Below, in pieces: positions 33,001 through 36,000 of a DNA stretch of 64,000 nucleotides; the first letter of the stretch is position 1, and each line of letters begins with the position of its first letter. Location of the stretch: the NCBI RefSeq assembly GCF_003334315.1, contig NZ_QOWR01000006.1. One strand, 5' to 3'. The DNA is from Escherichia coli (GTDB lineage: Bacteria; Pseudomonadota; Gammaproteobacteria; Enterobacterales; Enterobacteriaceae). The position numbers are program-made.

Positions 33001-36000
33001 AACGCGTCCCCTCACAAGTTCGCGGCACCGCACTGGGCGGTTACGCCGCGTTTCAGGATATCGCCCTCGGCGTCTCCGGGCCGCTGGCGGGAATGCTGGC
33101 GACCACGTTTGGTTACTCTTCGGTATTTCTTGCCGGGGCGATCTCTGCGGTGCTGGGTATTATTGTCACGATACTGTCATTTCGTCGGGGTTAACGAACC
33201 AGCCAGACCAGCATCAGGATAATCGCGACTAACAGTATCCACAGCGCGGGACGCGTTGCCATATTTTGCAACGTGTCCATCATCGGTGGAAAAGGATTAA
33301 GCAGCGGTTGCATAACACGCGGATCAATCCCTTTAACCCGCCGTTGATAAAGCTGATTAAGAATATCCTCGGCCTGGGCAGAAGAAAGCGATGATTGCGC
33401 AGAAAGACCATATTTTTGCTGGATATATGCCGATAACGCCGCCAGTTCACTGGCATCTAAAGGTTGTTTTAGCGTCATCTGTAGTGATTCCAGCGTCGGC
33501 GTATTTTGCTGGCTTAGCGTCTGACGCGCCTGTAGCCAGGTCACCAGATGGTTAAACAGTTTCGCTGGAATTAACTCGCCATCTTTCACCCCGGAAAGTT
33601 CCAGCATCGATTGCCAGATCTGTTTGCTGGGTTCCCCCGTTGCCGCCGCAAGTTTGGTCACCAGCTGTTTTAGCGCATTGTGCTCCGCCGGTAATAAAGG
33701 ACGGTCGGTCGCCTCGCGCTGCTGTGGTTGCGGAATAACCATCTTCCCTTCCTGCAACAGGGTGAGAATGGTTTTTAATTGCTCCGGTGAGAGCTGATTC
33801 AGCGGCGTCTGACCAAAGTTATGACGGATATAATCCGTGACCGCCTGACGATTATTCCCCAGACGTAAATACTCCCCTAATTGCGCTAAAAGCTGGCGGG
33901 CAGAATGGCTTTTTTGCGCGGCCAGCAGACGTTGCGCCAGATTATGCTCAGCGGCAGGGAAGTGACGCGAAAGCAGCGGTGAATCTCCCGACAGACCAAT
34001 ATCGTGCCTGATACCCGCCCACAGTTCTGCTCTTTGCTGTTGCGTCAGTGAGGTCACTTTCGTCATTAAGCTTTCCAGCGAAGTACGTTGCTGACTGGAT
34101 AAAGGCTGATTGCCTGTGCCAGACGGCAGATTATCTCCCTGACCTGGTGGTTGCCCAGGAGGAGGGCCGGAAATAGGTTGTATCATTACGTATCCTTATA
34201 CCTGAAATCTTCGCAAGTATGCCTGGCCGCGAGATTATGGCACACTTGTCCGGTTAACTCTCGTCTCATACAGGTAACACAAACGTGAAAATCCTTGTTG
34301 ATGAAAATATGCCTTATGCCCGCGACTTATTTAGCCGTTTGGGTGAGGTGACCGCGGTTCCCGGGCGTCCAATCCCCGTCGCTCAACTGGCAGACGCGGA
34401 TGCGCTGATGGTGCGTTCGGTCACGAAAGTGAATGAATCTTTGCTGGCAGGAAAACCCATTAAATTTGTTGGCACTGCCACTGCGGGGACCGACCATGTC
34501 GATGAAGCATGGTTGAAGCAGGCGGGAATTGGTTTTTCCGCTGCACCTGGCTGTAATGCGATTGCGGTGGTGGAATATGTTTTCTCCTCCCTGCTGATGC
34601 TTGCCGAACGCGATGGATTTTCACTGTACGACCGTACGGTGGGGATCGTGGGCGTTGGTAACGTTGGACGTCGATTGCAGGCGCGACTGGAAGCGTTAGG
34701 GATTAAAACCTTACTTTGCGATCCGCCTCGCGCCGACCGTGGGGATGAGGGTGATTTCCGCTCGCTGGATGAGTTAGTCCAGCGCGCGGATATTCTGACT
34801 TTCCATACGCCACTCTTTAAAGATGGTCCGTACAAAACGCTACATCTGGCGGATGAAAAACTGATCCGTAGCCTGAAGCCCGGAGCGATTCTGATTAACG
34901 CCTGCCGTGGCGCAGTCGTCGATAATACTGCGTTGCTGACCTGCCTGAATGAAGGCCAGAAGTTAAGCGTAGTGCTGGATGTCTGGGAAGGCGAACCGGA
35001 ACTCAACGTCGAGCTGCTGAAAAAAGTGGATATCGGCACGCCGCATATCGCAGGCTATACCCTGGAAGGTAAAGCACGCGGTACTACGCAAGTGTTTGAA
35101 GCTTATAGCAAGTTTATTGGGCATGAACAGCACGTTGCGCTGGATACATTACTGCCTGCGCCAGAGTTTGGTCGCATTACGCTGCATGGCCCGCTCGATC
35201 AACCGACGCTGAAAAGGCTGGTGCATTTGGTGTATGATGTGCGCCGCGATGACGCACCGCTGCGTAAAGTCGCCGGGATACCGGGTGAGTTCGATAAACT
35301 GCGCAAAAACTATCTTGAGCGCCGTGAATGGTCATCTCTGTATGTAATTTGTGATGACGCCAGTGCGGCATCATTGCTGTGTAAACTGGGTTTTAACGCC
35401 GTTCATCATCCGGCACGTTAATCTCTTCTTCATGCTCTCTGCTGTAACATTGGCAGGGAGCTTTGCTATTTCTGGAGTAAACCACCATGTCTGAAGGCTG
35501 GAACATTGCCGTCCTGGGCGCAACTGGCGCTGTGGGCGAAGCCCTGCTTGAAACGCTGGCTGAACGTCAGTTCCCGGTTGGGGAAATTTATGCACTGGCA
35601 CGTAACGAAAGCGCAGGCGAACAACTGCGCTTTGGTGGTAAGACAATCACCGTGCAGGATGCCGCTGAATTCGACTGGACGCAGGCGCAGCTGGCATTTT
35701 TTGTCGCAGGCAAAGAAGCTACCGCTGCCTGGGTTGAAGAAGCGACCAACTCAGGTTGCCTGGTGATCGACAGCAGTGGATTGTTTGCTCTCGAACCCGA
35801 CGTACCGCTGGTGGTGCCGGAAGTAAACCCGTTTGTACTGACAGATTACCGGAACCGGAATGTCATCGCCGTACCAGACAGTCTGACCAGCCAGCTGCTG
35901 GCGGCACTGAAACCGTTAATCGATCAGGGCGGTTTATCACGTATCAGCGTTACCAGCCTGATTTCAGCCTCCGCCCAGGGCAAAAAAGCGGTCGATGCGT

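Follow-up and report, generated by a model that had tools for sequence, protein, structure and literature searches.

The convergent genes yfcJ and flk of Escherichia coli overlap by four base pairs that hold both stop codons, and the pair is probably an unremarkable example of the most frequent kind of convergent overlap, persisting by passive lock-in. All positions given here refer to a 64,000-nt stretch of the E. coli contig NZ_QOWR01000006.1 (the window), in which the two genes lie in the setting of the E. coli fabB-yfcJ-flk-pdxB region. The junction is made up of the following elements:

32016..33194, plus strand: yfcJ coding sequence (MFS transporter, 392 aa) with the stop codon TAA at 33192-33194, from the ORF list, RefSeq and orthologues

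33191..34186, minus strand: flk coding sequence ('Fluke', flagellar secretion-switch regulator, 331 aa), from the ORF list and RefSeq

33191..33194, no strand: TTAA tetramer common to both coding sequences, from the sequence, with variants in 27 related loci

33190..33195, no strand: GTTAAC hexamer palindrome (HpaI site), incidental, in the context tttcgtcggg gttaacgaac

The location of both stop codons inside GTTAAC, as described in the initial annotation, is borne out by the sequence, the ORF list and the RefSeq annotation. The TAA of flk is the complement of 33191-33193, and the two stop codons have the two bases 33192-33193 in common. Position 1 of the tetramer is at once the wobble base of the last yfcJ codon (GGT) and the third base of the flk stop, while position 4 serves as the third base of the yfcJ stop and as the wobble base of the last flk codon (CGT). 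A short convergent overlap can only be of this 4-bp stop/stop kind, which reads TTAA, CTAA, TTAG or CTAG.

Within E. coli the arrangement does not vary. In the RefSeq annotation of MG1655 (MG1655 position = 2472136 − window position) flk occupies 2437950..2438945 and yfcJ 2438942..2440120, giving a 4-bp overlap, and strain 720632 matches the 1001-nt query at 100% identity, with the yfcJ end at 2995 and the flk start at 2992 (locus positions, RefSeq). An identical 4-bp overlap is annotated by RefSeq in three divergent E. coli strains, and of 5426 complete E. coli genomes all but one (5425) contain the region. Orthologues of YfcJ share 78–98% identity across 80 species loci, and both YfcJ and Flk have the same C-terminal length whether the genes overlap or are separated by a spacer. 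The C-terminal tail of Flk is hydrophobic, conserved in length and ends in ...WLVR directly before the stop; a C-terminal membrane anchor of Flk was described experimentally in Salmonella (PMC13344023). Since C-terminal length does not change with overlap or spacer, both stops are genuine.

Lillo and Krakauer (2007, PMC2174442) described stop/stop overlaps of 4 nt between convergent genes (CTAA, TTAA, CTAG, TTAG), which stand out as a spike when convergent overlaps are sorted by length. According to our own arithmetic on Tables 2 and 3 of that paper, this class accounts for about 36% of convergent overlaps. For E. coli 58–75 convergent overlapping pairs have been counted (PMC2174442, PMC4161906), and all overlap frequencies used here are these literature figures. 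As two genuine convergent genes with a TTAA tetramer containing both stops, yfcJ and flk belong to the YTAR class (Y = T or C, R = A or G), and their geometry, four shared bases holding both stops, is identical to that of the published class. Most genes of that class lack a rho-independent terminator, and the same holds for yfcJ and flk; nothing essential differs. The overlap is also already known, being annotated in every RefSeq E. coli genome checked, with its class published in 2007 and the pair itself in 2025. An overlap of such an ordinary and common kind is of little importance in itself, and the modest value added here is comparative: the history of one orthologous junction, at which all four permitted tetramers occur within the Escherichia-Salmonella-Citrobacter lineage and which is filled by hairpin spacers in sister genera.

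For this comparison 68 Enterobacteriaceae species loci carrying both genes were used. A 4-bp overlap is present in 27 of them (Escherichia, Salmonella, most Citrobacter and a few others), a spacer of 4–123 nt in 31, and a gap of at least 1.5 kb in the remaining 10. The tetramers of the 27 overlap loci read TTAA (14), TTAG (6), CTAA (5) and CTAG (2), with an invariant central TA. Except for two short ones, the spacers fold with −17 to −59 kcal/mol. Hairpin spacers occur at the orthologous junction of Enterobacter, Leclercia, Klebsiella and Buttiauxella; their sequences are unrelated between genera, and most are not followed by U-tracts. Among these loci, Escherichia, Salmonella and most Citrobacter share the overlap, while other Enterobacteriaceae carry a hairpin spacer at exactly the same place. 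In a single-gene NJ tree of YfcJ the overlap state fills the Escherichia-Salmonella-Citrobacter-Intestinirhabdus clade, with one locus as the single exception (L061, where genes are inserted at the junction), and it recurs in one small second group. This tree fits either direction of change, loss of the spacer or repeated insertion of hairpins. A shift of a stop codon as the origin of the overlap was rejected, as the C-terminal lengths are equal with and without spacer; the difference between the two states is therefore a precise indel of the spacer.

Once the spacer is gone, the overlap state would maintain itself. The two genuine genes share a YTAR tetramer in which each stop overlaps the other by two bases, and the central TA would be required by both. 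Harmless substitutions would be limited to the first base, between T and C, and the fourth, between A and G, because in these cases the one stop stays a stop and the last codon of the other gene changes silently, and nearly every indel would destroy a stop. Purifying selection on two stop codons would thus be enough for the conservation seen, and no selected function of the overlap itself would be needed. The junction may serve as a clean natural example of a stop/stop overlap able to persist by stop-codon selection alone. In any engineering of the yfcJ or flk 3′ end the TTAA has to stay, otherwise both genes are affected.

The initial annotation had further stated that no intergenic terminator separates the genes. 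This is correct, as there is no intergenic DNA at all, and it can be extended to the coding sequences: a conserved intrinsic terminator or hairpin inside the partner gene was not found at either end among the 28 overlap loci. On the 3′ side of flk no terminator-like site was detected in any of the 28 (0/28), and on the 3′ side of yfcJ weak, non-homologous sites were detected in four (4/28). The same script recovered the terminators of fabB, mlaA and yfcD/yfcC. In line with this, a G+C-rich hairpin between the two stops has no intergenic DNA to occupy, while it is present in the orthologous spacer loci, and a U-tract following a stem on both strands is likewise lacking, with none on the flk side in the 28 overlap loci and weak, non-conserved ones on the yfcJ side. 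Folding of 100 nt centred on the junction was weaker for overlap loci (−26.4) than for spacer loci (−42.3) or for a control inside yfcJ (−36.2), as compared by Mann-Whitney with loci treated as independent despite shared ancestry. A search of Rfam returned no family match at or near the junction; the sole match with an E-value up to 1 was REP-like and lies beside fabB.

As each mRNA must hold its own stop codon, its 3′ end lies inside the coding sequence of the partner, in antisense. Functional mRNAs of yfcJ or flk cannot terminate before the overlap, and the antisense 3′ overlap predicted in the initial annotation stands for this reason, along with a published excludon call for the pair (see below). 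Public transcript maps define the upstream part of the yfcJ unit by three features:

31831..31855, plus strand: intrinsic terminator of fabB (GGGAACC-TGAT-GGTTCCC-TTTTT), upstream boundary of the yfcJ unit, from the sequence

31897, plus strand: start of monocistronic yfcJ transcription (MG1655 2440239; SMRT-Cappable-seq Supplementary Data 2)

32093, plus strand: region of Rho-dependent termination in the yfcJ 5′ end (MG1655 2440043; Adams et al. Supplementary file 2)

The fabB terminator coincides with a Term-seq 3′ end at 2440281 (window 31855) and with SMRT-Cappable-seq TTS at 2440279/2440281. Termination there is leaky, given the reported read-through from fabB into yfcJ (unit b2323|b2322). 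At the Rho region, reads upstream and downstream numbered 236 and 15 without bicyclomycin and 266 and 98 with it (Rho score 5.8, p = 4e-12; Adams et al.). Both genes are weakly expressed: yfcJ reached 163 normalised RNA-seq counts in low phosphate (PMC10294691), DirectRNA-seq gave 15 reads across 800 nt of the yfcJ body (Adams et al.), and the SMRT-Cappable-seq tables contain no flk transcription unit. Head-on encounters of polymerases should therefore be rare, and mutual interference of yfcJ and flk is probably small because of the weak transcription of both genes. The 'likely' transcriptional interference of the initial annotation does not follow to this extent, strong interference being unproven.

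Around the junction defined 3′ ends are missing from the public maps. No curated Term-seq 3′ end falls within MG1655 2438600-2439299, no SMRT-Cappable-seq TTS lies downstream of yfcJ, though full-length yfcJ units exist, and the TERMITe supplements have no entry for the junction. This fits heterogeneous ends. A bicyclomycin-sensitive Rho region is likewise absent within about 340 nt on either side (Adams et al., 2438600-2439299), where coverage may be too low to score one. The same study lists Rho regions on the strand opposite mnmC, smrB and yfdF, which belong to three further convergent junctions of the window; the one closest to yfcJ/flk is the region inside the yfcJ 5′ end. The RNA 3′ of the flk stop tends to be rich in C and poor in G: its C/G ratio is 1.47 and 1.39 over the first 100 nt and 1.5–1.9 at +260–440 (90th percentile of the window, 1.53). 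On the other side C/G is 1.26 after the yfcJ stop and then below 1 until +320 nt, a composition that would favour Rho weakly. With about even confidence we propose that, after ribosome release, transcription of the untranslated antisense extensions would stop at varying sites, mostly through Rho, with nucleases then trimming the ends.

The pair is also found in the E. coli excludome, where ExcludonFinder, applied to 58 MG1655 transcriptomes, lists flk-yfcJ among the 165 convergent excludons detected in 50% of them or more (Sanmartin et al. 2025, PMC12288877), together with smrB-yfcO and yfcH-rpnB, two other convergent pairs of the window. This listing is the starting point for a reading in which the spacer-free state is kept by selection for mutual repression of yfcJ and flk, with RNase III cutting the duplex and polymerases colliding, so that expression of the two genes would be mutually exclusive. 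The higher synteny of excludon pairs in general (PMC12288877) and the retention of the overlap throughout the Escherichia-Salmonella-Citrobacter radiation speak for it. Nevertheless, the call for flk-yfcJ is nearly automatic because the coding sequences already overlap; in contrast to excludons revealed by long 3′ UTRs, the transcript overlap is here forced by the genes themselves. The hallmarks of excludons are reciprocal expression and RNase III processing, whereas flk-yfcJ is listed by transcript overlap alone, and capture of double-stranded RNA with p19 failed to validate the convergent excludons of E. coli. Moreover, selection on two stops fully accounts for the conservation, many relatives have a hairpin spacer instead, both genes are expressed at a low level, and no functional link is known between a flagellar secretion switch and a transporter needed for bo3 oxidase. 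We consider selection for mutual repression unlikely.

A different question is whether yfcJ transcription in E. coli is ended by an intrinsic terminator embedded in the flk coding sequence, at 33242-33278, about 50–85 nt past the stop. Two overlapping structures are located here:

33249..33278, no strand: 11-bp inverted repeat GGACGCGTTGC / GCAACGTGTCC within the 3′ part of the flk coding sequence; lineage-specific, probably incidental

33242..33268, plus strand: weak terminator-like site with a 7-bp stem followed by CCATATTTTG, present only in the window and one further locus (L008) among 28 overlap loci

The consensus scan indeed reports a stem with a T-run at 33242-33268, the hairpin at 33249-33278 is stable (z = −2.6 for the 121-nt fold), and Lillo and Krakauer (PMC2174442) located a rho-independent terminator within the partner for 20% of the E. 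coli genes that overlap convergently. However, the T-run of the 33242-33268 site is interrupted (CCAUAUUUUG) and sits in the loop of the stronger hairpin, and neither hairpin is therefore followed by a proper U-tract. The repeat is intact only in the window and in L008, weakened in E. albertii and absent from Salmonella and Citrobacter, and the terminator structure is absent from other Escherichia species as well. In MG1655 no 3′ end was called at 24388xx by Term-seq or SMRT-Cappable-seq, and the flk side has no counterpart. As a conserved yfcJ terminator both structures were rejected, since they are not conserved among the overlap loci, and termination of yfcJ by this element is improbable in E. 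coli as well, although the hairpin with its weak T-run could act locally.

Bidirectional hairpin terminators between convergent genes were reported by Ju et al. 2019 (as cited in bioRxiv 10.1101/2022.10.23.513370). By analogy to these, converging polymerases might halt each other near the yfcJ/flk junction, as modelled and supported by single-molecule data in Wang et al. (bioRxiv 10.1101/2022.10.23.513370). The setting of two convergent gene ends is the same, and the spacers of Enterobacter, Leclercia, Klebsiella and Buttiauxella resemble such hairpin elements, mostly without U-tracts. The junction of E. coli, Salmonella and Citrobacter, in contrast, has neither spacer nor hairpin and thus lacks the element that positions termination in the model of Ju et al., as it is outlined in that preprint. 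In Wang et al. a hairpin proved necessary for positioning the collision; without one, sites of collision and RNA ends are heterogeneous (bioRxiv 10.1101/2022.10.23.513370), and collisions would be rare given the low expression of both genes. This gives termination by collision only a slim chance here. The presence or absence of the hairpin spacer offers a ready pair of states for asking if bidirectional hairpins make a difference to convergent genes of low expression.

Close to the yfcJ stop a binding motif for PhoB is found:

33164..33181, plus strand: perfect Pho box TGTCACGATACTGTCATT at the yfcJ 3′ end, 11 nt before the stop

The box matches TGTCA-N6-TGTCA at 10 of 10 positions in E. coli only, with 5–9 of 10 in other overlap loci. 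It coincides with a PhoB ChIP-seq site (peak centre 2438961, window 33175; PMC10294691, Table 1) whose score of 8 is the top intragenic score and ranks seventh of 65 sites (PMC10294691). In phosphate-starved cells the box might form a roadblock at the junction or serve as an antisense promoter into flk. The observations in favour of this, namely the binding score, the perfect direct repeat and the orientation on the sense strand of yfcJ towards flk, are opposed by the unaffected yfcJ RNA after deletion of phoB (163 in the wild type, 187 in the mutant) and by the low sigma-70 occupancy at almost all intragenic PhoB sites, which the authors concluded to be inert (PMC10294691). About 10 bp downstream of the box no acceptable −10 element is present, as 33186-33205 contains no TATAAT-like hexamer with A2 and T6, and outside E. 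coli the box decays (6/10 in Salmonella). Thus, of the properties of a PhoB-activated promoter, the box and binding in vivo are found, but a −10 element and PhoB-dependent transcription, as judged from yfcJ RNA, are not. The combined proposal, that the spacer-free junction is a selected device whose antisense 3′ extensions make Flk and YfcJ expression mutually exclusive in Escherichia, Salmonella and Citrobacter, with phosphate control added in E. coli by the PhoB site as roadblock or antisense promoter, appears very unlikely, and a PhoB-linked function of the junction by itself is scarcely credible. An annotation artefact, with one stop not being the real protein end, can be dismissed with near certainty, as nothing supports it, sequence and length of both C-termini are conserved in some 60 species whether or not the genes overlap, and the hydrophobic anchor of Flk reaches the stop, as in the Salmonella experiments (PMC13344023).

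The weight put on the GTTAAC palindrome in the initial annotation was misplaced. The palindrome is incidental, since at the junction it is limited to Escherichia loci; others read GTTAAG, GCTAAG, CTTAAA etc. Given TTAA, complementary flanks arise in about 1 of 4 cases, and the window contains 22 copies of GTTAAC where 13.4 are expected. A functional palindrome was rejected on account of this Escherichia-only occurrence and of the hexamer not being rare in the window. A small stem across the stops (TTCGT/ACGAA) was rejected as well, its stem-forming flanks being different in E. albertii, Salmonella and Citrobacter. The span 33189-33196, given for the junction initially, corresponds to the hexamer plus one base on each side.

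The convergent genes yfcJ (MFS transporter) and flk (flagellar secretion-switch regulator) overlap by 4 bp at their 3′ ends. The local gene order comprises the following features:

30531-31751, plus strand: fabB
31831-31855, plus strand: fabB terminator GGGAACC-TGAT-GGTTCCC-TTTTT with an experimentally mapped 3′ end
32016-33194, plus strand: yfcJ, stop codon TAA at 33192-33194, C-terminal end ...F-R-R-G-TAA
33191-34186, minus strand: flk, stop codon complementary to 33191-33193, C-terminal end ...W-L-V-R-TAA
34285-35421, plus strand: pdxB, followed by usg

The junction reads ...TTT CGT CGG GGT TAA CGA ACC..., with TTAA (33191-33194) common to both coding sequences and the two stop codons overlapping by two bases within GTTAAC (33190-33195). 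Sequence, open reading frames and RefSeq annotation agree on this geometry, which the initial annotation described accurately. A 1-kb query spanning the junction is matched by 5425 of 5426 complete E. coli genomes (≥95% identity), on the chromosome in every case, and the window is E. coli chromosome.

Convergent overlaps shorter than 4 nt are impossible, and an overlap of 4 nt is restricted to TTAA, CTAA, TTAG or CTAG. These tetramers cause a jump at length 4 among convergent-overlap lengths (Lillo and Krakauer 2007; PMC2174442); by our own calculation from Tables 2 and 3 of that study, 4-nt cases account for 672 of 1890 convergent overlaps (36%). For E. coli the same study gives 58 convergent overlaps, with a rho-independent terminator for only 20% of the participating genes, while Huvet and Stumpf report 75 convergent overlapping pairs (PMC4161906). 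As a class the yfcJ/flk overlap is usual, not exceptional: RefSeq already annotates it, overlaps of this type are described in the literature, and an existing list of excludons, i.e. neighbouring genes with overlapping transcripts from opposite strands, includes the pair. Within the window it is the sole overlapping pair among eight convergent junctions, the remaining gaps being 32-218 nt. The emphasis originally laid on the palindrome was misplaced. Any TTAA is a palindrome, the neighbouring G and C belong to a Gly and an Arg codon, and GTTAAC, confined at the junction to Escherichia and present in 22 copies in the window vs. 13.4 expected, is incidental.

A YfcJ scan with one genome per species yielded 80 Enterobacteriaceae loci, in each of which the stops of yfcJ and flk were located; junction states were counted in the 68 loci possessing both genes. 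The 4-bp overlap occurs in 27 of these, namely in all Escherichia species, both Salmonella representatives, most Citrobacter, Intestinirhabdus, a Pluralibacter MAG and a few unnamed isolates. In 31 loci, from Enterobacter, Lelliottia, Leclercia, Klebsiella, Raoultella, Buttiauxella, Cedecea and others, a spacer of 4-123 nt is found, and in 10 the gap is at least 1.5 kb, filled by inserted genes in at least two cases. C-terminal lengths of YfcJ and Flk are equal in overlap and spacer loci (e.g. ...FRKG* and ...WLVA* in E. cloacae). Thus, the two states differ by a precise spacer indel, and a shifted stop codon is excluded as the difference. All spacers except two short ones (4 and 26 nt) form strong hairpins of −17 to −59 kcal/mol, the majority without U-tracts; compact stems occur in Buttiauxella (GCCACCC-loop-GGGTGGC) and in the spacer locus L018 (14 bp), longer REP-like palindromes in Enterobacter. 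In a neighbour-joining tree of YfcJ the Escherichia-Salmonella-Citrobacter-Intestinirhabdus clade has the overlap, with one locus carrying genes inserted at the junction (L061) as sole exception; a small second group overlaps as well, and every deeper group has spacers. This single-gene tree is compatible with one spacer loss or with repeated hairpin insertions.

Junction insertions span 3677-6000 in L061 and 3683-5403 in a further locus, L062. Citrobacter amalonaticus S646 carries a GntR-like regulator and a PTS EIIC-like permease exactly at the junction, the stop of the regulator being separated from that of yfcJ by only 4 nt and no flk lying within the flank, and Phytobacter and Kosakonia carry a GH1-like 6-phospho-beta-glucosidase there (all names read from ORF translations). 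In the Kluyvera group (L051, L052, L055-L058, L064, L077) no flk homologue was detected downstream of yfcJ by tblastn (E ≤ 1e-3, flank up to 2.5 kb; the L052 sequence stops 11 nt past the yfcJ stop), and flk here either lies at another site, has been lost or has diverged beyond tblastn recognition at this threshold. L042, labelled 'Chryseobacterium sp. 18061', is an Enterobacteriaceae yfcJ-flk locus grouping beside 'Citrobacter sp. 18056' of the same study, and its assembly is probably mislabelled or contaminated. Two species-representative genomes titled 'Escherichia coli' (L010, L011) encode Flk about 85% identical to that of the window and fall together with E. whittamii; they probably represent cryptic clades of Escherichia, not E. 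coli proper.

Among the 27 overlap loci the tetramer is TTAA in 14, CTAA in 5, TTAG in 6 and CTAG in 2, the central TA never changing. Position 1 serves the last yfcJ codon (GGT/GGC, Gly) as wobble base and the flk stop (TAA/TAG) as third base; position 4 has the corresponding roles in the last flk codon (CGT/CGC) and the yfcJ stop, and exactly these positions vary. Any other substitution in the tetramer would abolish a stop, as would almost any indel; the computed read-through extensions are 50 residues for YfcJ and 25 for the tail-anchored Flk. Since nearly all other changes destroy a stop, purifying selection on the two stops would suffice to hold this state, and the overlap itself would need no function to explain its persistence.

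As noted in the initial annotation, an intergenic terminator is missing, because there is no DNA between the genes. In a consensus scan the yfcJ strand gave one weak terminator-like site (33242-33268) and the flk side gave none, but the scan also missed the mapped fabB terminator, which our own script found under identical stated rules, so that a negative scan does not equal absence. An 11-bp hairpin (33249-33278), whose loop holds the T-run of the weak site, is the most stable structure in the vicinity. Both features are confined to the window and to L008, where Flk is most similar; other Escherichia species have degraded versions and Salmonella and Citrobacter have none, which rules the two features out as a conserved yfcJ terminator. 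An embedded terminator specific to E. coli appears unlikely. Our script, which recovered the fabB, mlaA and yfcD/yfcC terminators as positive controls, detected no terminator-like site within 160 nt downstream of flk in any of 28 overlap loci and weak, non-homologous ones downstream of yfcJ in four. Folding of 100 nt centred on the junction gave −26.4 ± 4.6 kcal/mol for overlap loci, compared to −42.3 ± 10.1 at spacer junctions and −36.2 ± 4.0 in a control segment inside yfcJ, the p-values being inflated in significance by shared ancestry of the loci. An Rfam search gave no family match at the junction. Relative to a 90th percentile of 1.53 for C/G in the window, the RNA following flk shows moderate C enrichment and G depletion, with ratios of 1.47 and 1.39 over the first 100 nt after the stop and 1.5-1.9 at +260-440, and that after the yfcJ stop has 1.26, then values below 1 until +320.

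Published data were placed by MG1655 = 2472136 − window. For the MG1655 ranges searched around the junction (2438600-2439299), the curated Term-seq data of Adams et al. (2021) contain no 3′ end, and none of their Rho regions comes closer to it than about 340 nt. The study maps the fabB terminator 3′ end to 2440281 (window 31855) and a Rho region to the 5′ end of yfcJ at 2440043 (window 32093, plus strand), about 77 nt into the coding sequence, with reads of 236/15 without and 266/98 with bicyclomycin. SMRT-Cappable-seq revealed a yfcJ unit starting at 2440239 (window 31897, plus strand) and a fabB-yfcJ read-through unit, with no TTS called downstream of yfcJ and no flk unit. This Rho region, start and read-through suggest that in LB Rho attenuates yfcJ transcription close to the 5′ end of the gene. 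In low-phosphate RNA-seq yfcJ reached 163 normalised counts, far below typical genes of that table (PMC10294691). Together these datasets fit low expression and heterogeneous 3′ ends, whose positions they do not give.

Complete yfcJ and flk mRNAs must by logic overlap by at least 4 nt, in practice by more, so the antisense 3′ overlap proposed initially holds. The ribosome would leave at the stop codon, and the untranslated antisense extension would be ended mainly by Rho and then trimmed, a course to which we give an even chance. Three further convergent junctions of the window, those involving mnmC, smrB and yfdF, have Rho regions antisense to these genes (Adams et al. 2021), which shows that Rho commonly ends such extensions locally. 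Transcriptional interference, also proposed initially, is unproven and would be weak, because both promoters are apparently weak. With ExcludonFinder, 165 convergent excludons were recovered from at least 50% of 58 MG1655 transcriptomes, flk-yfcJ being one of them (NAR 2025; PMC12288877). This call is close to automatic because the coding sequences overlap, and p19 capture failed to validate excludons of the convergent type; selection of the pair as an excludon is unlikely. Collision-driven termination is less probable still, as the published model requires a hairpin to position collisions (bioRxiv 10.1101/2022.10.23.513370).

A perfect Pho box (TGTCACGATACTGTCATT, 33164-33181, plus strand) precedes the yfcJ stop by 11 nt, at a distance of 10 nt from that of flk. 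It is a published PhoB ChIP-seq site (centre MG1655 2438961) with score 8, seventh of 65 and the top intragenic score, and yfcJ RNA is unchanged by phoB deletion; the paper leaves flk unmentioned and concludes that intragenic PhoB sites of this kind are inert and not conserved (PMC10294691). The decay of the box outside E. coli (10/10 matches in E. coli only, 7-9/10 in other Escherichia, 6/10 in Salmonella) agrees with the latter, and a PhoB-linked role is very improbable. RefSeq gives the identical overlap for MG1655 (flk 2437950..2438945, yfcJ 2438942..2440120), and likewise for a strain 100% identical over the 1001-nt query and three divergent strains. An annotation artefact is practically negligible.

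Other junctions of the window differ in structure. The genes yfcD and yfcC (53503-53534) share a classical bidirectional terminator, AAGAGCCGC-AATT-GCGGCTCTT between A and T runs; yfcO/smrB (22909-22978) has a GC hairpin without U-tracts, and rpnB/yfcH (49488-49534) is almost structureless. The latter two pairs are on the published excludon list. A sub-threshold Rfam match to naRNA4 at 31761-31837 (minus strand; 31.9 bits vs. 59.5 as gathering score, E = 0.004) appears to be a REP-like palindrome situated between the stop codon and the terminator of fabB. Upstream of yfdC, positions 1-5450 hold a prophage remnant with baseplate genes, a truncated stfP pseudogene, an acyltransferase and an IS5-family transposase fragment.
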